From Patescibacteria group bacterium (GTDB lineage Bacteria; Patescibacteriota; Minisyncoccia; UBA10092), in the NCBI GenBank assembly GCA_018826255.1, contig JAHJZO010000029.1, positions 1 through 54,587 on the forward strand: a stretch of DNA of 54,587 bases, given 5' to 3'. The notes below the pieces were generated by a model. The model was not told where the DNA came from, made no database searches, and was given only the letters and a program-made list of their open reading frames with translations. Both the position numbers and the translations under genes were made by a program. Each line of letters begins with the position of its first letter. The first letter of the stretch is position 1. This document shows, piece after piece, positions 1 through 46,571 of the stretch.

Positions 1-420
1 CCAAATCATTTTCACCTCACAATGTGTGAATTTAAAGAAAGTGGCATATCGCAATATATGCAAAGGGTGTTATGCGCGTATACAAAATATTTCAATACAA
101 AATATAAAAAATCTGGACATGTATTTCAAGGCCCTTATAAAGCCATTAATATTAAAAATAATAATCAACTTTTATATTTATCTACATATATTCATCGCAA
201 TCCACGAGAAATTTCTGAATGGAAAAATAAAGAGCATTTGTATCCATGGTCAAGCTATTGGGACTATTTAAAAAATAATAGATGGGGGAAATTATTAAAA
301 CAAGATATTATTTTGGAGCAATTTTCTAATAAAGAAGAATATAATGTTTTTACAAAATCTAGTCTGGCAAAAGAATTGATGGAAAACTTAGATGATGATG
401 ATATTTTAATAGATTTGTAG
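1..420 (+). CDS. IS200/IS605-family Y1 (HUH) transposase / RAYT-like, 5' end cut by window edge
   Basis: Frame 1 is open from nt 1, and PNHFHL (the HUH motif) precedes tracked ORF 22..420. YIHRNP catalytic-Tyr motif present. Roughly two-thirds aa identity to the complete copy at 45770..46450. Confidence 0.8.
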   Translation, partial: PNHFHLTMCEFKESGISQYMQRVLCAYTKYFNTKYKKSGHVFQGPYKAINIKNNNQLLYLSTYIHRNPREISEWKNKEHLYPWSSYWDYLKNNRWGKLLKQDIILEQFSNKEEYNVFTKSSLAKELMENLDDDDILIDL

Positions 421-2739: not shown

Positions 2740-5081
2740 ATTTTTTTAAAAGGAACTATCCGGTAATTCTTCTGGCAGTTTTATCTCTATTGCTGTTTGG
2801 CCGGATTTTATTTTCCGATAGACTTTTTCCCGGATTTGATCCCCTTTTGATTTTTTATCCCTATTCATTTCATTTTTTCCACTTGCAAAGTTTTTGGACT
2901 TCCGGAATATTAAGCGGATTCAATATTGGCGCGACGCCGGCTACTTTTGCCGGTAATTGGATTTACTATTTTTTTGCCAGTGGCATTGGATTCAAATTTT
3001 TTGACTTTATCACTTTTTATAATATTCTGATTTTCTTTTATTTTTTTCTAACGCTTTCTTTCTCATATCTTTCGGCGAGAGCTTTAGGTTTTGATAAATG
3101 GGTCGCAACTCTGGTTGCTTCCGTTTATATTTTTAGCGCCTATAATTTAAGTTGGATGGTGAATATTGTCACGGCGGCGTCACTTTTTATTTTTCCTGCT
3201 ATTATTTATTTTTTGCTTAAGTTCAAAGAACACCATAAGTGGATTTGGCTTTTTTTAGGAGGACTTGTATTAGGGTCCGGCCTGATAATGGCACATCCCC
3301 AATTTGCTTTAATAGCGGTTTTTGGCGGATTTTTATTTTCGTTATTTTTAACTTTTGAATCGGACTTCAAAAAACCTAAATGGATTTTTCTCGTTGCTTT
3401 TTTAGCGATAAGTTTGATTGGATTAGCATTGGCGGCGTTTCAATTAATCCCTGAATATCAAACAGTTCTGTTAACTCAAAGGGGCGAGGCGCTCAGTTTT
3501 TCAGCATCTCAGGAGTGCGCTTTAATCCCGTTGGATTTTGTCAGATATTTTATCCCGAATTTCAATTTTTTAGTTAGTTGCGAATCTCTTTTATACATGG
3601 GAGTTTTACCTCTAATTCTGGCGATTTTGGCAATTTTTTACTCCAGAACTGAAAAAAAGCGTATTTTTTTCTGGATGTTTTTATTGGTGTTTTCTATTTT
3701 ATTTTCCGTTAAATATTCTCCATTGGCTTGGATTTTTCATCAACTTCCGATTTGGCGAAGTGTCAGATCGCCGGGCCATTTTTTAATGCTTTCCGATTTT
3801 GCCTTGGCTGTTTTAGCCGGATTCGGTTTTAATTGGGTTTTAGAAAATAAAGAAAAGTTTAAAGAATCAAAAATATATAGGTGGATTAAAGGGCTTTTTT
3901 TCGGGGGGTTAGCAATAATCTTGGCTATAAACATCGCAAGTTTTTTTAAAAACAAATTTATAAAATTAGCGACAGATTATTTTGACAAGTACTATTATCA
4001 GAAAACCATCGGCTTGCCTTTAGAAAATTACCATCGCTCTATAGAAAACCTTATTTCCAGTAATTTTTATAATTTCAGTTTTTTAAATAAAGATTTTGCG
4101 ATTCCATTTATTCTAACAGTGTTAGCGTTTTTGGTTTTATATTTTATTTACAAATTTAATAAAACAGCGCTTTTTTACGCCGTTATTCTTAGTGGTTTTA
4201 TTTGGACAGTTTCCAGTCCTATGATTTCATCCGGTTTAACAAGGGATTTTTTCAAAGAAACCGAAATCATCGGATTTTTAAAGGATAAAAAATCGCCACT
4301 TCGTATTTATAGCTTACTGCCAGGCCTATCCACTTATCAATTATTGGCCTTAACTTATCCCGGCGTTACGGAATCCGACCAGAATGAATTTTTTAAAACA
4401 ATGCTTCCGCCTAATTTGAATATTGTTTACGGCTTGGATTCTATAGACGGCTACGATGCTTCTATGCCACGGCGGACAGCAAGAATCCTCGCCGAACTTT
4501 TGAGCGAACGCGCCACGATTGGAAATAAAATTGCGGAAGCTAGATTAAAACCGGAAGAAAAAATAAAAATCTTTGAAAGTCGCAAAAACCTACTTTCAAT
4601 GATGAATGTCAAATATGTGATTTCAGCTTATCCGCTTGATGAAAAATTTTTTAAAAAAGTTTTTGAGATTAAAACAACACGCTTTGAGGTTCCAGTTTAT
4701 ATTTATGAAAATAAAAATGTTTTGCCAAGATTTTATTTCGCGAAAACGGTAAATTCAGTTGAATCCGATGAAATGAAGGTTTTGAACGAAATTTTGGCCC
4801 CGGATATTAATTTCGGAGCCATAACGTTTATAGAATGCGGCGACAATTGCGAGGGCGTTTCTTTAGGAAAAATTATTGACTATGAATATAAAAACGGCTA
4901 TTTGCGGATAAATACTGAAAGTCAAATTGGCGGCTGGCTAGTATTCAGCGAGTCATATGACAATAATTGGCAAGCTCTTATAAACGGCGCGGAAGATTCT
5001 ATTTACAGAGCTAATTATATTTATCAAGCGGTTCAAGTCCCGGCCGGGGGAAATACTGTTGAATTTATTTACAAACCATGA
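2715..5081 (+). CDS. YfhO-family polytopic membrane glycosyltransferase (GT-C-like), paralog 1
   Basis: 788 aa with many hydrophobic spans. C-terminal NNWQALINGAEDSIYRANYIYQAVQVPAGGNTVEFIYKP is typical of YfhO. Overlaps the upstream GT2 gene by 25 nt. Confidence 0.7.
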   Translation: MENDLKKINFFKRNYPVILLAVLSLLLFGRILFSDRLFPGFDPLLIFYPYSFHFFHLQSFWTSGILSGFNIGATPATFAGNWIYYFFASGIGFKFFDFITFYNILIFFYFFLTLSFSYLSARALGFDKWVATLVASVYIFSAYNLSWMVNIVTAASLFIFPAIIYFLLKFKEHHKWIWLFLGGLVLGSGLIMAHPQFALIAVFGGFLFSLFLTFESDFKKPKWIFLVAFLAISLIGLALAAFQLIPEYQTVLLTQRGEALSFSASQECALIPLDFVRYFIPNFNFLVSCESLLYMGVLPLILAILAIFYSRTEKKRIFFWMFLLVFSILFSVKYSPLAWIFHQLPIWRSVRSPGHFLMLSDFALAVLAGFGFNWVLENKEKFKESKIYRWIKGLFFGGLAIILAINIASFFKNKFIKLATDYFDKYYYQKTIGLPLENYHRSIENLISSNFYNFSFLNKDFAIPFILTVLAFLVLYFIYKFNKTALFYAVILSGFIWTVSSPMISSGLTRDFFKETEIIGFLKDKKSPLRIYSLLPGLSTYQLLALTYPGVTESDQNEFFKTMLPPNLNIVYGLDSIDGYDASMPRRTARILAELLSERATIGNKIAEARLKPEEKIKIFESRKNLLSMMNVKYVISAYPLDEKFFKKVFEIKTTRFEVPVYIYENKNVLPRFYFAKTVNSVESDEMKVLNEILAPDINFGAITFIECGDNCEGVSLGKIIDYEYKNGYLRINTESQIGGWLVFSESYDNNWQALINGAEDSIYRANYIYQAVQVPAGGNTVEFIYKP

Positions 5082-5776
5082 AAATGCGACGGGTCTATGC
5101 TTTCTCCGCTCTTGGCATCTATATCGCCCCGCAACAATTTTACAATTACTTGCGCGGTAAATTTAGGATTTTCTTTCAGTTTGGCATCGCCAAACAGTTT
5201 CTCTCTCATAGGAGTGTTTAAAGCTCCGGGCGTAATTGAATAACAAGTTACATTTGTGTCCTCCAATTCTTTTGCCACTGCTTGGGTGAGTCCCTCGACA
5301 GCAAATTTAGTGGCCGAATAAAGAGCTAAGCGGGGGTAGCCATTTTTGCCAGCGCGGGACGAAATGTTAATGATGGCTCCCTCATTAATTTTTTTAAAAT
5401 GGGGGATTACCTTTTTTAACATATAAAACATAGAAAAAACATTTATTCTAAAACAATCTCCGATTTCTTTCTCCGTCAGTTTCTCTACTATTTTTAGGGG
5501 CGGGCTCCACCCAGCATTATTAATTAAAATATCCAACCCAAAATTTTTAATAACGCCATTAACCCATTTGAATTCTTTTGCCTTGGAAATATCGGCAACA
5601 AAAATATCTGCTTTGCCGTTTAAGCGGAGTATCTCTTTTTTTGTTTGGGTTAGCGTTTTAATGTGTCTGCCTACCAATATTGTAAGTACTTTTTCTTTGG
5701 CTAGTTCCAGAGCGATAAATTTGCCCAAACCCTGACCGGCGCCCGTAATAATCGCGATTTTATTTGTTAATTTCAT
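5069..5776 (-). CDS. classical short-chain dehydrogenase/reductase (SDR)
   Basis: TGAGQGLG cofactor motif, NNAG, YSATK catalytic Tyr/Lys. ATG at 5776 chosen inside the longer track ORF. Confidence 0.8.
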   Translation of the reverse strand: MKLTNKIAIITGAGQGLGKFIALELAKEKVLTILVGRHIKTLTQTKKEILRLNGKADIFVADISKAKEFKWVNGVIKNFGLDILINNAGWSPPLKIVEKLTEKEIGDCFRINVFSMFYMLKKVIPHFKKINEGAIINISSRAGKNGYPRLALYSATKFAVEGLTQAVAKELEDTNVTCYSITPGALNTPMREKLFGDAKLKENPKFTAQVIVKLLRGDIDAKSGESIDPSHFHGL

Positions 5777-5843: not shown

Positions 5844-7103
5844 ATGAGCTTATTGGGGTTATCGCAAAACGGAAAACACATAACTCAATGTCACATGTGT
5901 CGTGGGGGCGAGTTATTTAACGTGCTCGATCTTGGAATGCATCCACCATCAGACGCATTCTTAAGAGAGGACCAATTATTGGAGCAGGAAGCGTATTATC
6001 CCTTGAAGTTAATAAGTTGCGATAGGTGCGGTTTATTACAAATTGATTATATCGTGCATCCGGAAATCTTATATCAAAGGGATTATCCGTACGAATCATC
6101 CACTACTAAAACCGGAAGAGAGCATTACTATTCTATGGCGGCTGATATTGTCGAGGGGTTCTCAATACCCAAAGGGTCTCTGTCGGTAGATATCGGCAGT
6201 AATGTTGGAGTTTTGTGCGCGGGCTTTAAAAAACTTGGGTTTAAAGCTCTGGGGGTTGATCCTTCAAATACAGCCGCTAAGAAAGCTATTGATAACGGCA
6301 TAGAAACTATTGTTGATTTTTTTAATGAATTTACCGCCGACAAAGTCCTCGGACAATATGGCGCGGCAAAAGTTATTACGGCTACTAATGTTTTTGCCCA
6401 CATAGATGAATTAGACAGTACCGTCAGGGGGATGAAGAAACTATTAGCAAAAGATGGCGTTATCGCTATTGAAGCGCCCTATGCCGTAGATCTAATTAAC
6501 AATTTGGAATACGACACTATTTATCACGAACATATTTGCTATTTGTCGGTTAAGCCGATGAGGTCTTACGTAAAAAGATTTGGGTTGGAGTTATTTGATG
6601 TCAAGAAAGTTTCTATTCATGGCGGGAGTCTCAGGTATTACATTGGGCATGAGGGCTCGCATTCATTGAAGAAGTCAATTAAAGATTATATTTCCGAAGA
6701 AAAAAAGCAGGGACTGTATTCTAAAGCGAAATTGAGGAATTTTGCTCTCAAAGTAGAAAAGCATAAAATGGCTCTCGTTTCACTAATTATGGATTTAAAA
6801 AAAAGAGGCAAAAAGATTGTTGGCATAACTGCGCCAGCCAAGGGCAATACGTTACTAAATTATTGTAATTTAAGCCGGCAGTATATAGATTTTCTAACCG
6901 AAAAAACACAGATAAAAATCGGCCTATATTCACCAGGTATGCATATTCCTATATACTCCGATGAGCATCTTTTTAAAAAGAAGCCCGATTACGCATTAAT
7001 ACTGGCTTGGAATTTTGCGGATGAAATTATGAAAAATTTGCATAAATTTAAAAAGGGTGGCGGAAAATTTATAATACCAATTCCGACTCCAAAAATTATA
7101 TGA
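5844..7103 (+). CDS. NDP-hexose C-methyltransferase-like (Zn-ribbon + class I SAM MTase + C-terminal domain; TylC3-type architecture)
   Basis: N-terminal CHMCRGG...CDRCGLLQ zinc ribbon, VDIGSNVGVL SAM-binding loop and a long C-terminal domain. Confidence 0.65.
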   Translation: MSLLGLSQNGKHITQCHMCRGGELFNVLDLGMHPPSDAFLREDQLLEQEAYYPLKLISCDRCGLLQIDYIVHPEILYQRDYPYESSTTKTGREHYYSMAADIVEGFSIPKGSLSVDIGSNVGVLCAGFKKLGFKALGVDPSNTAAKKAIDNGIETIVDFFNEFTADKVLGQYGAAKVITATNVFAHIDELDSTVRGMKKLLAKDGVIAIEAPYAVDLINNLEYDTIYHEHICYLSVKPMRSYVKRFGLELFDVKKVSIHGGSLRYYIGHEGSHSLKKSIKDYISEEKKQGLYSKAKLRNFALKVEKHKMALVSLIMDLKKRGKKIVGITAPAKGNTLLNYCNLSRQYIDFLTEKTQIKIGLYSPGMHIPIYSDEHLFKKKPDYALILAWNFADEIMKNLHKFKKGGGKFIIPIPTPKII

Positions 7104-13136: not shown

Positions 13137-15596
13137 ATGTTACAATATTTATATAAAATAATAAATCAAAAAATCATTTGGGGTTTAATGATATTTTGCT
13201 TATTTTTTATTGGGCTTGGCACAATCCTCTGGCCCGTTTTAAGCGGGCAGAAAATATTTAATGACTACTATGTGACGAACTATGCCGTTGGCCAGACCGG
13301 CTATAATTTTTATAAAGATTTCGGCGATAGCTTGAGGCAGGGGCATTTGCAACTTTGGCTATCAAGCTATATGGGGGGCTTCCCCGTATATCTAACGCAA
13401 GCGGGCTTTTTTAATCCCATCGGGATGATTCTTTTTAGGTTTTTTGACTATATTTTTGCCTACAATTGGCTGACTTTTTTAAATTTCCTGTTTGCGGGAC
13501 TGGCAATGTATTGGTTTATAAGAAATTTAAAATTATCAAAATTAGCCGCTATTTTAGGAGGATTTGCTTGGGCGCTTTCTTTTAATAATATCCAATATGG
13601 GTCCATGCTGATTTTTAGTAATCTTTATTTCTTTATTCCGTTGTTTTTTGGCGCAATTCTAAAATTGTCAAGAGGGAATAAAAAATATCTTATTTTGGGC
13701 AGTTTGATCTCTGCCTATGGTTTAATAGCAGGTTTTACAACCTTAGTTTTTTACACGTTTATCACAGGCTTAGCTTGGGCTTTGTTTTTAGATTGGCCAA
13801 AATTTCTTGGAAAGACACTTCGCAATTATATTTTTATTTCTTTGATCGGAATAATCTTAGCGAGTATTTGGCTTTTGCCGGTTTTGAATTATTTGCCGCT
13901 TACCTTGCGGGGAGACGCGATAAGTTCAATAAATTTTTATGATTACTTAAAAATTGGCGATATTTTAAGATTTTTTTATCCTTTTATTCAATTGCCGGGA
14001 TTTGGCGGTTTTTCACTTTTAAGCGGCGTAGCCAATCTTTATGTCGGCATTATCCCGTTTTTATTGGCAATTATAGCTTTTTTTCTGTGGAAAAGGAACA
14101 AAATGATTGCATTTTGGTTAGGGCTTTTCATTTTTGCGTTTTCAATGCGACTTTGGTTTTTTCCGGTGTTCCAATGGCTTCAGTATTTGCCTTTATTCAA
14201 TAAATTCAGAGCGCCTTTCCATTGGTACAGTTTGGCATTTTTTTCTTTATCAGTGCTTTCTGCCTATGGTTTGGATTATTTAAAAGATATTAAAGAAACA
14301 GGGTGGTTCAAGAAGTTTATAAAAATTTTAGAAATTTTCGCGGTTTTAAATATTGCAATTGTTCTGATAATTAATACGGCAATAAAATTTTTTCGTATAA
14401 ATATTTTAAATACCATTTTTGAATATTTTGATAAATATTTATATTCAATCGCCAAAAAAAATCCGATTGATTATTATCATCAAATTATAACGCAGGTTTT
14501 TGATAAAAGCGCTCAAACTTTTTCTTTCTCTAATTACCATTTTTTAATTTCTTTTGTGTTCGTTTTAATAGGCATTTCGATTTTTGTTTTGTATCGGCGG
14601 GATTATATAAGTTTTGAAAAATTTAGAATATTGGCGGTAGCGATTGCAATTCTAAATTTGGTCTTTATCTGGCAGGGATATTATAATTTTACTTCCAAAA
14701 ATTTAATAACCAATCCGCCGGATACAGTTCAATTCATTAAAAAGCAAAAAGAGTCAGATAATTTTAGAGTTTTCAGATTTTATCCGCCGGAAATGTATAA
14801 GCAATTTGGACTTTATGATTTAAAAAATCCTTTGGATTACGATATAAAAACTTTGGGATTACAAATTAATCCCTATTGGATTGATGGGCTCGGCGGAGGA
14901 GAGCCGTTTAGGTCACAGAGAATTTCCGAAGTTCTTGATGAAATCGGTTATGAAGTTTCATCTATGTATGGTCCAGTTTGGATTAAATTCAATGATATTT
15001 CTCTTAACGACAAAACCTCCCGCTTTTCCTCTCCTCAAAACCTAAACCTCATGTCCATGCTTAATATCAAATACGTCTTTTCTTCATTTAAATTACTCAA
15101 CCTGAAACTTATTTATGAAACCACAGCCACGGAAAAAAACATTCCGGTATATGTCTACGAAAATCCCAACGCTATGCCAAGAATATATTTTGCCAATAGT
15201 GTTAAATATATTGACTCTCAGAATGCGTTTGAGGAGCTATTGAAAGTTAAGGATTTTCATGAGATGACGTTGATTGAAGCGACGAAATCCGACCGAAGTC
15301 CGACATCTGGGGATCTCGATGTCGGACTTCAAGAAGTGTCGGATTTTGATATGATAGAATTTAAATCAGAATCAGTAAAAATCAAAACTTCCGGCGATGG
15401 TGGATGGTTAATATATAGTGATGCTAATTTGCCGACCTGGGAAGCGTATATAGACGGCCAAAAAACAGACATTTACACAGCCAACTATCTGTTCAAGTCC
15501 ATATTTGTTCCGGAAGGGGAACATGAAGTGATATTTAAATATCCGGGTTTGTGGGGGCAGTTTAAATATGCGTTCGAAAGTATTTTTGAAAAATAG
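13137..15596 (+). CDS. YfhO-family polytopic membrane glycosyltransferase, paralog 2 (A)
   Basis: 819 aa multi-TM protein. C-terminus WEAYIDGQKTDIYTANYLFKSIFVPEGEHEVIFKYPG. Paralog of 16457..18856. Confidence 0.7.
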   Translation: MLQYLYKIINQKIIWGLMIFCLFFIGLGTILWPVLSGQKIFNDYYVTNYAVGQTGYNFYKDFGDSLRQGHLQLWLSSYMGGFPVYLTQAGFFNPIGMILFRFFDYIFAYNWLTFLNFLFAGLAMYWFIRNLKLSKLAAILGGFAWALSFNNIQYGSMLIFSNLYFFIPLFFGAILKLSRGNKKYLILGSLISAYGLIAGFTTLVFYTFITGLAWALFLDWPKFLGKTLRNYIFISLIGIILASIWLLPVLNYLPLTLRGDAISSINFYDYLKIGDILRFFYPFIQLPGFGGFSLLSGVANLYVGIIPFLLAIIAFFLWKRNKMIAFWLGLFIFAFSMRLWFFPVFQWLQYLPLFNKFRAPFHWYSLAFFSLSVLSAYGLDYLKDIKETGWFKKFIKILEIFAVLNIAIVLIINTAIKFFRINILNTIFEYFDKYLYSIAKKNPIDYYHQIITQVFDKSAQTFSFSNYHFLISFVFVLIGISIFVLYRRDYISFEKFRILAVAIAILNLVFIWQGYYNFTSKNLITNPPDTVQFIKKQKESDNFRVFRFYPPEMYKQFGLYDLKNPLDYDIKTLGLQINPYWIDGLGGGEPFRSQRISEVLDEIGYEVSSMYGPVWIKFNDISLNDKTSRFSSPQNLNLMSMLNIKYVFSSFKLLNLKLIYETTATEKNIPVYVYENPNAMPRIYFANSVKYIDSQNAFEELLKVKDFHEMTLIEATKSDRSPTSGDLDVGLQEVSDFDMIEFKSESVKIKTSGDGGWLIYSDANLPTWEAYIDGQKTDIYTANYLFKSIFVPEGEHEVIFKYPGLWGQFKYAFESIFEK
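15285..15346. repeat. nested in-frame palindrome inside the variable cassette of YfhO paralog A
   Basis: Inner arms GAAGTCCGACAT (15295-15306) / ATGTCGGACTTC (15319-15330). Outer arms AAATCCGAC (15285-15293) / GTCGGATTT (15338-15346). Confidence 0.8.
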
Positions 15597-15602
15597 ATAT
15601 TT

Positions 15603-16454
15603 ATGAAAAAAACAGAATTTTGTCCTATTTGTCGCAAAAAAAATCCAAGCGAATTTGATCATAAAAATGAATTTACTATATGGAAATGTTCCGGTTGTGA
15701 TTTATTATGGACACCAGATGTAAGTGAGGATATTTTAAGAGAATTTTATTCAAAGTCATATTTTAAAAGTCAGCATCATATTTTCGGTTATAGTAACTAT
15801 ATCGAAGATGAAGAAACTCTTCGTATTAATGCTCGCTACATATTATCCGAATTTCCGGAATTCAAAAATCGTTTACCTAAAATGCTTGATATCGGATGTG
15901 CTTACGGTTTTTTATTAGATGAGGCCAGGAAGTTGGGTTGGGGAACAGAAGGTCTGGAATTTAGCACTGAGGCAACGAACTATGCAGTCAATAAATTAAA
16001 TTTAAATGTATCTACTGGCTCTATTATGCAAGCCAATTTTCCTGAAAATAGTTTTGACATTGTTACAATGATAGGTGTTATAGAGCATCTAGCCGATCCT
16101 ATAGCCGCCATTCGCAAGATAAATAAAATATTAAAACTCGGCGGTTACCTTGCCATTACCACTATTAACACCAAGGGATTCGTGAGGTTATTTGATTTAA
16201 AGCCGCCAGAACATACTTTTTATTTTTCTGCCAAAAATTTATCTTTATTATTAAAAACGGAAAATTTTAAAGTAATGAAATCTCTTCCTTATTGGTGCTT
16301 TTATAATTTAAATGAGGCCTTGGATAGAGCTTTTAGATTGATTTTTAAATCTAGTAAAAGAATCGAGGAATTTTTAGGAAAATTCCCTTTTTTGAAATAT
16401 CCAGTAAAAGTGCCAACCAATGAAATGTTTGTATTGGCCCGAAAGATAAAATAA
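15603..16454 (+). CDS. class I SAM methyltransferase with N-terminal Zn-ribbon
   Basis: CPICRKK...CSGCDLLW and MLDIGCAYGFLL. Sits between the two YfhO paralogs. Confidence 0.75.
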   Translation: MKKTEFCPICRKKNPSEFDHKNEFTIWKCSGCDLLWTPDVSEDILREFYSKSYFKSQHHIFGYSNYIEDEETLRINARYILSEFPEFKNRLPKMLDIGCAYGFLLDEARKLGWGTEGLEFSTEATNYAVNKLNLNVSTGSIMQANFPENSFDIVTMIGVIEHLADPIAAIRKINKILKLGGYLAITTINTKGFVRLFDLKPPEHTFYFSAKNLSLLLKTENFKVMKSLPYWCFYNLNEALDRAFRLIFKSSKRIEEFLGKFPFLKYPVKVPTNEMFVLARKIK

Positions 16455-16456
16455 AT

Positions 16457-18856
16457 ATGAAAGTTATTTTTTTATTTTTAATTTGCTTGCTTGTGATTTT
16501 TGGGCCAATTTTATTTGGCGATAAAGTTATTGATGATTTTTTCGGTCTTGATCTGGCTCAATATAAATTTTTAACAGATTTTGGCGATAATTTGAAACAA
16601 AATTTGACACAACTTTGGTGGCCGGATTATCTCGGGGGTTTTCCGATTTATTTAACTCAAACCGGCCTTTTTACTCCTTTAGTTTTTATTTTATATAAAT
16701 TCTTTAGTGGTTTCGCAGTTTACAATTGGCTAACCTTTCTTAATTTCCTGATCGGAGGGCTTGCAATGTATTGGTTTGGTAGAAATTTATCGCTTTCAAA
16801 GATTGCTTCAGTTATTGTTGGCTTAACCTACGTTTTATCCCAAAATAATTTATATTGGGGTCCAACTTTAGTTTTCAGCAATGTTTATCCATTTATCCCT
16901 CTGTTTTTTCTGGCATTATTGAAAATATCAAGAAATGAAAAATTATGGTTTATTTGGGGGGGCTTGATTTCTGCTTATGGATTAGCGGCTGCAGAAATAC
17001 AAATCGTTTTTTACGTATTTGTTATAGGATTTTTTTGGGCTTTATTTTTATTTTGGCAATCAAAAAATCTAAAACCGATTTGGGGATATTTTAGCATTGG
17101 CATTGCCGGAACAATTCTGGCAAGTTTTTGGCTTTTGCCGGTTTTTAATTATCTGAAGTTAACCACTCGGAGCGGAGCTCTAAGCTTTGCCGATTTGACC
17201 TATGACTTTATGAGAATCGCTGACCCTTTGCGATTTTTCTACCCCTATATCCAGTTGCCGCAATTTACCGGTTTAGCGAGTTTAGGCCTCGTTCCCAATT
17301 ACTATATCGGCGCATTTGTTTTCTTTTTGGCAACGGCGGCGCTCTTTCTGGTTGGGAAGAATAAACTTATTGCTTTTTGGGCCGGTGTTGCCACCTTCGC
17401 CTTGGTGGTTAGAATTAAATGGACGGGGATTTTTTGGTTGCTTCATTTTTTACCCGGCTTTGACCGTTTCCGAGGAGTTTTTCATTGGGCATATATAAGC
17501 TCGTTTGCTTTGGCGCTTCTTGCCGGTTTCGCCGTGGATAATATGGAGCAGATTAAGGAATCAAAATATTTTAAAAAATTTGTTAACGCGCTGAAAATTT
17601 TTGGATGGACAAATATTATTTTAGTTGCAGTCATATTTTTAACCAGTTTGTTTCGTGCCAGAATCTTAAATAAAATTTTCCAATTCTTTGATACAAAGAT
17701 TTATCAGACAACAAGGCAATTTCCCTTAGAACATTACCATAATGTCATTACTTCGGAATTTGATAAATTTTTAAACGCTTTTAGCTTAAGCAATTATCAT
17801 TTTCTTATTTCATTTTTGAGCATTTTAATCGCAGTATTAATTTTTATTTTGTATCAAAGAAATAAAATTACTTTTGATAATTTCAAAAAATCAGCGTTTG
17901 TATTCACGTTCTTAAATTTGGTTTTAATCTGGCAAGGTTATTACAGTTTTATCCCGCAGAATAAAATCACCAATTATCCCGATACGGTAACTTTCATAAA
18001 AAATTACTATCATGGTGAAGAAAAATACAGATTTTTCAGATTTTATCCGCCGGAATCCTATCAAGAATTCGGAGTTTTCAATGTTAAGGATTGGTCTGAC
18101 TATAAATTAAAAACCTTAGAATCAAATATAGGCGTTTATTTTGATATGGATACTTTTGGCGGACTGGAGCCATTTATGTCGGCCCGCATTGCCGATATTT
18201 TTGATGAAATAGGATTTGAGAGGCCTACGGCGATTTCAGGCGAACCTTGGCTTCGCTCTACGAAGTTGTCTTTAACCGACAAAACCTCCCGCTTTTCCTC
18301 TCCTCAAAACCTAAATCTCATGTCCATGCTCAACATCAAATACGTCTTTTCTTCATTTAAATTACTCAACCTAAAATTAGTCTACGAAACCACAGCCACC
18401 GAAAAAAACATTCCGGTATATGTTTACGAAAATCCCGATGCTATGCCAAGGATATATTTTGCCAAGGAGGTTAAATATATTGATTCAGAAAGCGCTTTTG
18501 GCGAGCTATTAAAAGTTAAGGATTTTCATGAGGTGACGTTGATTGAATGCGAAAGAAATTGTCCCAAAATATGGATTTCCGACTTCAAAAATTCCCCGAA
18601 GTCGGAAATCAATATTTTCGAATCGCAACTTATTAAAATCAAAACTTCCGGCGATGGCGGATGGTTAATATACAGTGATGCCAATCTGCCTACTTGGGAG
18701 GCGTATATAGACGGCCAAAAAACGGATATTTACACAGCTAACTATTTATTTAAGTCCGTGTTTGTTCCGGAAGGGGGACATGAAGTGATATTCAAGTATC
18801 CCGGGTTGTGGGAACAAGATAAAGCGGCGCTCAAGCGCTTAATTTTTCGTTACTAA
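16457..18856 (+). CDS. YfhO-family polytopic membrane glycosyltransferase, paralog 3 (B)
   Basis: 799 aa. Colinear with paralog A and near-identical in two C-terminal tracts. Confidence 0.7.
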   Translation: MKVIFLFLICLLVIFGPILFGDKVIDDFFGLDLAQYKFLTDFGDNLKQNLTQLWWPDYLGGFPIYLTQTGLFTPLVFILYKFFSGFAVYNWLTFLNFLIGGLAMYWFGRNLSLSKIASVIVGLTYVLSQNNLYWGPTLVFSNVYPFIPLFFLALLKISRNEKLWFIWGGLISAYGLAAAEIQIVFYVFVIGFFWALFLFWQSKNLKPIWGYFSIGIAGTILASFWLLPVFNYLKLTTRSGALSFADLTYDFMRIADPLRFFYPYIQLPQFTGLASLGLVPNYYIGAFVFFLATAALFLVGKNKLIAFWAGVATFALVVRIKWTGIFWLLHFLPGFDRFRGVFHWAYISSFALALLAGFAVDNMEQIKESKYFKKFVNALKIFGWTNIILVAVIFLTSLFRARILNKIFQFFDTKIYQTTRQFPLEHYHNVITSEFDKFLNAFSLSNYHFLISFLSILIAVLIFILYQRNKITFDNFKKSAFVFTFLNLVLIWQGYYSFIPQNKITNYPDTVTFIKNYYHGEEKYRFFRFYPPESYQEFGVFNVKDWSDYKLKTLESNIGVYFDMDTFGGLEPFMSARIADIFDEIGFERPTAISGEPWLRSTKLSLTDKTSRFSSPQNLNLMSMLNIKYVFSSFKLLNLKLVYETTATEKNIPVYVYENPDAMPRIYFAKEVKYIDSESAFGELLKVKDFHEVTLIECERNCPKIWISDFKNSPKSEINIFESQLIKIKTSGDGGWLIYSDANLPTWEAYIDGQKTDIYTANYLFKSVFVPEGGHEVIFKYPGLWEQDKAALKRLIFRY
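18574..18610. repeat. in-frame 13-bp-stem palindrome inside the variable cassette of YfhO paralog B
   Basis: GATTTCCGACTTC (18574-18586), 11-nt loop, GAAGTCGGAAATC (18598-18610). Shares the TCCGAC/GTCGGA core with the paralog A palindrome. Confidence 0.8.
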
Positions 18857-45726: not shown

Positions 45727-45742
45727 GTGTTAGATAAATGTT

Positions 45743-46482
45743 ATAATGTTAGAAGCTCGGTTTCTAACATTATAAATCTATCATTAACAAATTATCGTCT
45801 GAATATTCTTTGGATTGTTTGGCGATACTAGTTTCTACAAAATTTTTATATTCATTTCCAGTAGAAAATTGTTGAATAATAATATTTCGCTTTAACAATC
45901 CATTCCATCTATTTTCTTTTGAGCAATCTTGATAGCTCGACCATGGATAGGCAAGTTCCTTATTTTTCCATTTAGGTATTTCTCTTGGATTGCGATGAAT
46001 ATAGGTAGATAAATACAAAAGCTGATTATTGTTTTCAACATTTACCGCTTTATATGGGCCTTGAAACAAGTGTCCGGTCTTTTTATATTTTGTATTAAAA
46101 TACTTAGTGTAAGCGCAGAGAACTCTTTGCATATACTTAGCTATGCCGTCTTCTTTCACTTCGCGCACAATAGCATGAAAATGATTTGGCATCATGACAA
46201 AATTTACCAACTCCACATACCTTTCTCTCAGTACTTGTTGTACCGTTTCTTCCACTATGTTAAAAGCTCGGTTTTTAACATAGTGTGATGTTTGACGACC
46301 CAAATTATAAAAAACTATCGGAGACTGAAGATAAATAATTAAAAACAAAAATCTAATCCTATCTTTTTCGTCTAAAAATAGCGGCTGTTTATTGTTGCCT
46401 CTGTTAAAAATATGATAATGTTCGCCCGGAGCGATAATAGTTTTTCTCATAATATAATAATGTTAGAAGCTCGGTTTCTAAC
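45743..46482 (-). mobile_element. complete IS200-like / RAYT unit: Y1 transposase gene flanked by identical 26-nt hairpin-containing repeats
   Basis: ATAATGTTAGAAGCTCGGTTTCTAAC occurs at 45743-45768 and 46457-46482 in the same orientation, bracketing CDS 45770..46450. Confidence 0.75.
45770..46450 (-). CDS. IS200/IS605-family Y1 (HUH) transposase / RAYT-like
   Basis: PNHFHAIV (HUH) and YIHRNP (catalytic Tyr). 226 aa. Confidence 0.85.
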   Translation of the reverse strand: MRKTIIAPGEHYHIFNRGNNKQPLFLDEKDRIRFLFLIIYLQSPIVFYNLGRQTSHYVKNRAFNIVEETVQQVLRERYVELVNFVMMPNHFHAIVREVKEDGIAKYMQRVLCAYTKYFNTKYKKTGHLFQGPYKAVNVENNNQLLYLSTYIHRNPREIPKWKNKELAYPWSSYQDCSKENRWNGLLKRNIIIQQFSTGNEYKNFVETSIAKQSKEYSDDNLLMIDL

Positions 46483-46571
46483 CGCCAATGATAGAATAAC
46501 AGATAATAGATATAATAGGTAGGACTAGGTTTTAATGTTTAGGAGGCGGATTGCTTTTTTTATTTTTTCGA

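Follow-up and report, generated by a model that had tools for sequence, protein, structure and literature searches.

Two long palindromes lie within the paralogous YfhO-family genes YfhO-A and YfhO-B on a 54,587-nucleotide contig of a Patescibacteria group bacterium (assembly GCA_018826255.1, contig JAHJZO010000029.1; this whole stretch is called the window below). We propose, with a probability of roughly 0.8, that these palindromes are REPIN-like elements translated as flexible linkers, and that they belong to the repetitive extragenic palindrome (REP) family of a clade of HUH/Y1 single-stranded DNA transposases from the ultra-small Patescibacteria that resemble REP-associated tyrosine transposases (RAYTs). 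Inverted REP doublets that RAYTs mobilise are known as REPINs (PMC3337134), and from the sequences we infer that the doublets described here are mobilised in the same way. The features under discussion are collected in Table 1; G000 denotes the window's genome, other G numbers denote its relatives, and C denotes a contig.

Both palindromes were recovered with the sequence and at the coordinates given in a preliminary description of the window, and both lie in frame within the open frames of their host genes, as had been stated there. In YfhO-A the parts follow one another as AAATCCGAC, c, GAAGTCCGACATC, TGGGGATCTC, GATGTCGGACTTC, aagaagt and GTCGGATTT, a nested arrangement that reads as a doublet within a doublet, or as a four-unit element. 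Its inner stem is perfect, as described, but measures 13 bp around a 10-nt loop and not 12 bp around 12 nt; translated in the host frame, the inner doublet forms part of ...SDRSPTSGDLDVGLQEVSDF.... In YfhO-B the loop runs in the orientation opposite to that of YfhO-A, both arm changes are compensated, and the peptide reads ...WISDFKNSPKSEI.... The third YfhO-family paralog of the window, which had been said to carry a shorter segment at this position, has 10 and 6 residues fewer there than A and B, respectively.

When folded as RNA and compared with dinucleotide shuffles, the A and B palindromes gave -33.3 kcal/mol (z -5.05) and -18.3 kcal/mol (z -6.4), and with short flanks included the z values were -5.7 and -7.2. 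None of 200 shuffles folded as well; the comparison with shuffled controls that the preliminary description had called for therefore places the palindromes far outside the shuffle range (z -5.1 to -7.2). Codon shuffles of the host genes yielded a stem of at least 12 bp in 10 of 300 cases for A and in 3 of 300 for B, and the whole genome holds 44 perfect stems of at least 13 bp, as against 0-1 in first-order Markov shuffles. The claim that such stems are unexpected in AT-rich coding DNA thus holds for their rarity; it does not hold for the AT-richness, since the genome (537 kb in 49 contigs, 97% complete) has 40% G+C and is only moderately AT-rich.

The repeat unit is a 13-mer, GAAGTC-S-GACTTC, which is palindromic in itself around a central C or G (an odd palindrome) and contains a stop codon in none of its six frames. 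Two inverted units separated by a loop of 5-25 nt make up a doublet of 31-42 nt, and the elements overall span 31-62 nt. In the great majority of doublets the central base is C in the first unit and G in the second, so that the arms pair perfectly; G..G or C..C combinations are rare. Variants of the inner stem are nearly all compensated (TTC/GAA, CTC/GAG, ATC/GAT, TCC/GGA and CCC/GGG), with one mismatch in a few of the matches listed. Two loops recur: TGGGGATCTC, as in A, and GGGGA(A)TTTTT, as in B and in a copy within rpoB. The A-type loop subtype is found with consensus arms in G007, G009 and G010 as well, and of the four other copies that have the TGGGGATCTC loop, two in G007 and one in G010 are enclosed by additional half-units on either side, as A is. 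The YfhO-B loop is identical to that of copies in G002 and G010; the rpoB copy has a loop shorter by one base. As the B and rpoB copies have the loop AAAAAT(T)CCCC in common and their first arms are read in different frames, their likeness lies at the level of DNA and not of peptide.

Table 1. Features of the window, and one gene on another contig of the same genome; positions are those of the window unless a contig is named.
Feature	Position	Strand	Remarks
YfhO-A nested palindrome, whole	15285..15346		outer half-REPs AAATCCGAC (15285-15293) and GTCGGATTT (15338-15346) around inner doublet; four-unit architecture
YfhO-A inner REPIN-like doublet	15295..15330		arms GAAGTCCGACATC (15295-15307) and GATGTCGGACTTC (15318-15330); loop TGGGGATCTC (15308-15317)
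YfhO-B REPIN-like doublet	18574..18610		arms GATTTCCGACTTC (18574-18586) and GAAGTCGGAAATC (18598-18610); 11-nt loop AAAAATTCCCC (18587-18597)
YfhO-A host gene, YfhO-family paralog A, 819 aa	13137..15596	+	Pfam PF09586, 41.5 bits
YfhO-B host gene, YfhO-family paralog B, 799 aa	16457..18856	+	PF09586, 28.3 bits, marginally below the 28.5-bit cut-off
Third YfhO-family paralog, 788 aa	2715..5081	+	shorter linker; homologous site without palindrome
Divergent A/B cassette	15285..15373	+	47% nucleotide identity; flanks homogenised (15015-15284 at 77-96%, 15374-15553 at 86-89%)
Complete RAYT-like Y1 transposase gene, 226 aa	45770..46450	-	hairpins TGTTAGAA-GCTCGGT-TTCTAACA at 45741-45775, 46253-46285 and 46461-46484
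Second, truncated RAYT copy	1..420	+	hairpin at 426-448
C8 RAYT-like gene	C8:4796-5476		region 4683-5503, outside the window; bracketed by TATAGGTTTC-S-GAAACCTATA

The element is not confined to the YfhO genes. A scan of the window's genome for perfect inverted repeats revealed further copies with consensus arms, GAAGTCCGACTTC ... GAAGTCGGACTTC, at C2:1586-1627, in frame in a class I tRNA synthetase gene of the isoleucyl (IleRS) type, and at C34:3777-3812, in frame in rpoB. The genome-wide search for the module that the preliminary description had recommended thus finds the same doublet in unrelated genes, four doublets lying on three contigs, all within long open frames; with a dispersed family of this kind, the idea of a cassette mechanism specific to YfhO falls away. 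Beyond this genome, 13 of 61 relatives carry the doublet; within the family, 7 of the 11 other genomes do. Across the class, 45 of 401 genomes contain the core AGTCCGAC..GTCGGACT (in relatives, a genome has up to 10 matches to the core pattern), as opposed to 0 of 401 for a reversed-pattern control. In public genomes, taken as one per species, more than 119 doublet stretches are present among the matches listed, mostly in Patescibacteria (Giovannonibacteria, the Parcubacteria group, Sungbacteria, Kaiserbacteria and metagenome-assembled genomes labelled Saccharibacteria); other carriers among these matches belong to Chloroflexota, Cyanobacteria, Ignavibacteriales, Bacteroidota and Omnitrophota.

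This distribution bears on whether the palindromes arose locally, by template switching or slippage (quasi-palindrome correction) in unstable linkers, in which case their likeness would be convergence. Such an origin would fit the tandem heptamers and other palindromes that the same linkers hold in sister genomes, the frequent extension of the palindrome by its flanks and the roughly constant linker length. It is hard to square, however, with 36-mers that are identical, loop included, in unrelated genes of different genera, with the empty reversed control, with the bracketing of RAYT genes by the unit, or with the number of doublets: by our own estimate, which counts 26 fixed bases, ~0.003 would be expected by chance in 596 Gb, against the more than 119 among the matches listed. 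We therefore consider a local origin very improbable and return to the dispersed family.

Hosts of the doublet in sister genomes include leucyl-tRNA synthetase (LeuRS), peptidyl-tRNA hydrolase (Pth), a Wzy_C O-antigen ligase, a GT1 glycosyltransferase, a ComF-like protein and a TPR membrane protein, and a copy at UvrB is located directly upstream of the likely start codon. In relatives, too, copies are mostly intragenic, so the word 'extragenic' in the definition of a REP does not describe them. The encoded peptides are KSDF.., RSPTS.. and EVRL../EVGL.., showing that all three reading frames are used, and the GGGGAT-type loop occurs in both orientations with respect to the host gene (4 sense, 11 antisense).

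Hairpins kept within genes could in principle serve the host as nucleic acids, through ribosome pausing at domain boundaries, mRNA stability, antisense termination or binding of a dimeric protein. The perfect stems with their compensated changes would agree with this, as would the constancy of the 13-mer at one IleRS position in two genera and the GGGGAT motif that the loops have in common across families. The hairpin of B is moreover terminator-like on the antisense strand, the only strand and element to score; no intrinsic terminator was called on the sense strand. Against a host function stand the mixed orientation, the functionally unrelated hosts and the sister genomes that have heptamer repeats and no hairpin at the same sites; a scan of 15100-18800 against Rfam returned a single chance-level match (IS009, 17 bits against a gathering score of 117), and the RAYT link already accounts for hairpin conservation. 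A host function of this sort thus appears improbable, though a host-selected RNA or DNA structure may exist as a secondary use. On the same grounds of orientation and Rfam content, we do not favour the earlier suggestion of an intragenic RNA structure that modulates translation.

The link to transposases, on which the REPIN-like reading leans, comes from the genes that the repeats surround. The window's genome has three matches to the Pfam family Y1_Tnp (35-42 bits against a cut-off of 23); the RAYT-like sequences display an HUH motif (NHYH/NHFH) and a YIHxNP motif, and match weakly to ISDra2 TnpA (PDB 2xm3). A search for a TnpB partner with PF07282 found none. The complete gene in the window is bracketed by hairpins and contains one further copy in frame; its clade and its REP type differ from those of the YfhO palindromes. 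Closer to the latter is the C8 gene, whose flanking type, TATAGGTTTC-S-GAAACCTATA, also occurs as ~14 dispersed single units in G000, mostly intergenic. Of note, TGTGAGGGGATTT is found 3' of the 3' unit of this gene and again in the loop of a palindrome at C34:9908, and recalls the GGGGAT loops of the doublets.

In the five doublet-richest genomes nearly every Y1_Tnp gene lies between copies of a perfect odd palindrome of its own, and many RAYT-like genes (in G007, G010, G011, G097, G126 and G259) also have their REP repeated in frame inside the gene, at a constant position preceding the HUH motif. The exact 13-mer itself flanks RAYT genes on both sides at G097:C15 and G126:C19 (Giovannonibacteria) and on the Kaiserbacteria contig VGJQ01000022, two of these three genes having an extra in-frame internal copy. 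At G097:C15 and G126:C19 the bracketing palindromes are TACCGAAGTC-S-GACTTCGGTA and TGATTGAAGTC-S-GACTTC.., and both contain the 13-mer. The layout known as a REPtron, a transposase gene between copies of its own repeat, is therefore seen with the exact 13-mer in three other genomes, whereas in G000 the C8 gene is bracketed by a sister unit only. One RAYT gene, in G259, contains a doublet.

A tree of 22 RAYT-like proteins shows that repeat type goes with RAYT clade: the C8 protein clusters with the two RAYTs flanked by GAAGTC units (SH-like support 0.98, 42-49% identity). The REP cores of C8-like RAYTs in the family are GGTTTC-S-GAAACC (G000, G005), GATGTC-S-GACATC (G010), GATATC-S-GATATC (G011) and GATTCC-W-GGAATC (G001), and halves of cores from this clade are combined in the arms of YfhO-A (GAAGTC/GACATC) and of YfhO-B (GATTTC/GACTTC). 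Intermediates exist in the window's genome, namely GATGTC-S-GACATC units, GGTTTC/GACATC hybrids and hybrids such as TATAGGTTTCCGACATCTATA. The preliminary description had offered relics of a palindromic insertion element as one of its explanations, and this is the one that the data favour: the same module sits in frame in unrelated genes of G000 and of many relatives, and it flanks RAYT-like genes.

Several observations weigh against this assignment. The best and only NCBIfam match of the transposases, REP_Tyr_transpos ('REP-associated tyrosine transposase'), reaches 36-42 bits against a cut-off of 80. No RAYT of the window's genome is flanked by the exact GAAGTC-S-GACTTC unit, nor is any RAYT of G007, the genome richest in copies within the family (9 matches to the core pattern; 99% complete), and no Y1_Tnp gene was detected in the doublet carriers G002, G008 and G009, whose genomes are 88-93% complete. 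Neither a GTAG nor a CGTC tag was seen beside the GAAGTC-type units or the RAYT-flanking copies, and the copies examined have no target-site duplication and no flanking direct repeats. Finally, linkers with and without the element are roughly equal in length (in rpoB, G000 and G002 differ by 2 residues), and prior sequence may have been overwritten or replaced instead of the element simply being inserted. Classification as a MITE (a miniature transposable element with inverted repeats) was considered and rejected, there being no flanking direct repeats and no longer parent element with such ends in sight.

If the REPIN-like reading is right, a RAYT would bind the hairpin on single-stranded DNA and copy or move the doublets. 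The copies that survive would be those that leave the reading frame open, a property the 13-mer has in six of six frames, and whose host protein tolerates ~12 extra or replaced residues; translation would then turn them into linker peptides (KSDF, RSPTS, EVGLQ...). The nested palindrome of YfhO-A may reflect a second doublet that landed inside an older one.

The two YfhO genes, ~0.9 kb apart with one gene between them, offer a view of how such elements turn over. DNA identity between A and B is ~60% over the 5' 1.9 kb and climbs to 89-96% at 15015-15194; outside the cassette, the 3' ends (15015-15553 against 18284-18800) are 86-96% identical, and the proteins are 76% identical across their C-terminal 198 residues. 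This likeness points to gene conversion between the paralogs. Paralog pairs in G004 are alike within their genome in the same manner, and therefore the 3' ends appear to be undergoing homogenisation, with the cassette as an island of fast turnover; the divergence of the cassettes would then reflect turnover of elements within a region that gene conversion otherwise evens out. The cassettes differ in length and in whole elements and not by A-specific substitutions, a point noted when the idea of a target of a diversity-generating retroelement was briefly considered. In sister genomes, the orthologous C-terminal linker of YfhO has no palindrome and holds (CCAAGCT)n, (ATACAAA)n or other simple sequence. 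As a separate observation, a CxxNC motif at the start of the linker is lost in A and kept in B, in the third paralog and in some orthologs.

An island of this kind invites the explanation, also raised in the preliminary description, that the inverted arms are recombination or inversion sites which shuffle the YfhO cassettes and so diversify a surface-glycan enzyme. That the cassette is the sole divergent island in the homogenised 3' region and that the A and B loops face in opposite directions would suit such a switch. Yet the loops are of different subtypes (TGGGGATCTC as against GGGGAATTTTT), so B is not an inverted A; the arms are just 13 bp long; the cassettes of sister genomes hold unrelated heptamers; and the same element is found in rpoB, ileS, pth and other genes in which switching would make no sense. 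No invertase turned up beside the YfhO genes, though no search was aimed at invertases. We give hardly any credence to cassette switching.

The alignment of orthologs that had been recommended as a check showed the element to be present or absent at orthologous sites, and a peptide that the orthologs do not share. At the rpoB site, G010 has GAAGTCCGACATC..GATGTCGGACTTC, the arm variant of YfhO-A, while G003 has (GCGACAA)n and G007 (CAAACAA)n. At the IleRS site, G000, G002 and G008 have the left 13-mer in common at one position, after which G002 continues with a different palindrome (TCCGCC..GGCGGA); G003 holds GCGRCAA repeats. At the comF-like site, G000 carries a single GATGTC-type unit, TATAGATGTCGGACATCTATA (C26:7007-7025), and G002 a GAAGTC doublet (G002:C12); to judge from these sequences, one REP has been replaced by another at the same codons. 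As the linker length changes little in several comparisons, the elements may have arrived either by plain insertion or by replacement of earlier sequence. As the orthologs are hypervariable at these positions, we take the elements' sites to be permissive. A tentative and on balance doubtful extension is that the RAYT/REP system rewrites fixed 'landing-pad' linkers non-randomly, acting as a site-directed generator of linker diversity that may be exploited in surface-glycan enzymes such as YfhO; what suggests it is that a single site, across sister species, can hold a GAAGTC doublet, one REP that is of a different subtype, a palindrome from another family or heptamers.

Heptanucleotide tandem repeats fill the same linkers in sister genomes (G003, and also loci in G007, G009 and G011). 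In G003, 92 of 305 hits of the tandem-repeat search with TRF have a period of 7, with families such as TGTCGCT, CTTGCCG, TTGAAAA and AATTTTC and many arrays of 27 nt, and one heptamer is common to the rpoB and ileS genes of that genome.

Among known systems, the closest are the REP and REPIN elements with their RAYTs, exemplified by E. coli RayT/YafM with REP/BIME (bacterial interspersed mosaic elements) and by REPIN-RAYT in Pseudomonas (Bertels and Rainey, PMC3337134; Di Nocera et al. 2013, PMC3733652). Points of agreement are a dispersed short palindromic unit, inverted doublets that form a single long hairpin (which is what defines a REPIN), a Y1/HUH gene bracketed by its own repeat, and a repeat type that follows the transposase clade. 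Unlike those systems, the Patescibacteria unit, a perfect odd palindrome, has one central base and no GTAG/CGTC tag, the doublets measure 31-42 nt and all four of G000 are intragenic and in frame, and the RAYT-like protein, of ~226 aa and below the NCBIfam equivalog cut-off, often has its own REP in frame and comes from a Patescibacteria lineage.

REPs within genes are documented exceptions to the extragenic rule, and published cases of in-frame REPs and of REP dimers encoding 20-30 residues come from Opitutus terrae, Rickettsia conorii (RPE-4/6) and other organisms, with tRNA synthetase and uvr genes among the hosts (PMC3733652). Like these, the elements reported here are palindromic repeats in frame in functional genes, including those for tRNA synthetases and repair proteins, and are tolerated by unrelated proteins. 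The Rickettsia palindromic elements (RPEs) were reportedly described by Ogata and colleagues in 2000. Those of the RPE-1 type differ in being ~100-150 bp long, specific to Rickettsia and without a known transposase, as opposed to 31-62 nt and a nameable cognate RAYT clade here; judged from the descriptions, length and lineage set the two apart and only the in-frame habit is common to both. With IS200/IS605 TnpA and its derivatives (palindrome-associated transposable elements, or PATEs, and MITEs) the system has the Y1/HUH enzyme family in common, and recognition of single-stranded DNA hairpins would be expected by analogy; unlike them, it shows neither TnpB nor distinct left and right ends, and it lacks both target-site duplications and the terminal inverted repeats of a longer parent.

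Cyanobacterial genomes provide another parallel. Their small dispersed repeats (SDRs), reportedly described by Elhai and colleagues in 2008, are hairpin-forming repeats of 20-30 nt that insert into other elements and genes, and short tandemly repeated heptamers (STRRs) coexist with them in the same genomes. The SDR/STRR genomes resemble those studied here in combining hairpin repeats with heptanucleotide tandem repeats, and differ in lineage and sequences; we know of no RAYT link described for SDRs. The perfect inverted repeats of Nematomorpha mitochondria, which are translated within coding genes, reach 284 bp (PMC6649704). These are thus much longer, are organellar and have no transposase link.

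Our literature search found the exact 13-mer in no relevant paper, and no paper coupling a RAYT or REPIN with Patescibacteria. In-frame REPs and RPEs are already known; what sets the present elements apart is the lineage, the tagless odd palindrome, the very small size, the mostly intragenic copies and the copy inside the RAYT gene. To our knowledge, an extragenic position is part of the definition of REP/REPIN elements, and work on them has been confined almost entirely to Proteobacteria. Patescibacteria hosts have genomes with almost no intergenic space, and here a miniature version of the REP resides mainly within genes, including rpoB, ileS and leuS. For annotation, this means that oddities of 10-20 residues in Patescibacteria proteins can be repeat-encoded linkers and not functional motifs; for alignments and trees, marker genes carry repeat-derived inserts, and masking is advised. 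For mobile-DNA biology, an enzyme of 226 aa and a palindrome of 13-21 nt form a compact, tractable system for asking how RAYTs choose and copy hairpins.

Three other possibilities were set aside. The arms contain AAGTCGGA, which we take to be shared with a sequencing adapter; an adapter artefact was rejected because the copies leave reading frames open and are present in the assemblies of many different studies and platforms. The likeness of GAAGTCGGAA to a stretch of 16S rRNA was treated as coincidence, and a DNA-uptake or parS-like site was ruled out by the low copy number and the RAYT link.

Other palindromes were observed in the same genome. The rpoB gene has a second in-frame palindromic element at C34:3443-3515 (CCCTGATAAGGG..CCCTTATCAGGG, peptide SPDKGRLGGVELRRGETHPTPPLSG), whose family has further members at C34:780-820, 2477-2517 and 6253-6293 and at C41:1919, flanking rpoB and lying within another open frame. 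In rpoC (a 1200-aa frame with the NADFDGD motif), TGTTGGAAGCTCGGTTTCCAACA, which is of the REP type of the window's RAYT, is in frame at C34:8095-8117. An in-frame family TCCGCCAAAGGCG-GATC-CGCCTTTGGCGGA is found in G000 (C33:14175-14214), at five or more loci in G003 and at the IleRS site of G002, and a family AAATTGCATGTT..CGATCG..AACATGCAATTT has at least six copies in G000 (C24:7243, C32:8911, C32:9545, C42:17066, C47:11941 and others).

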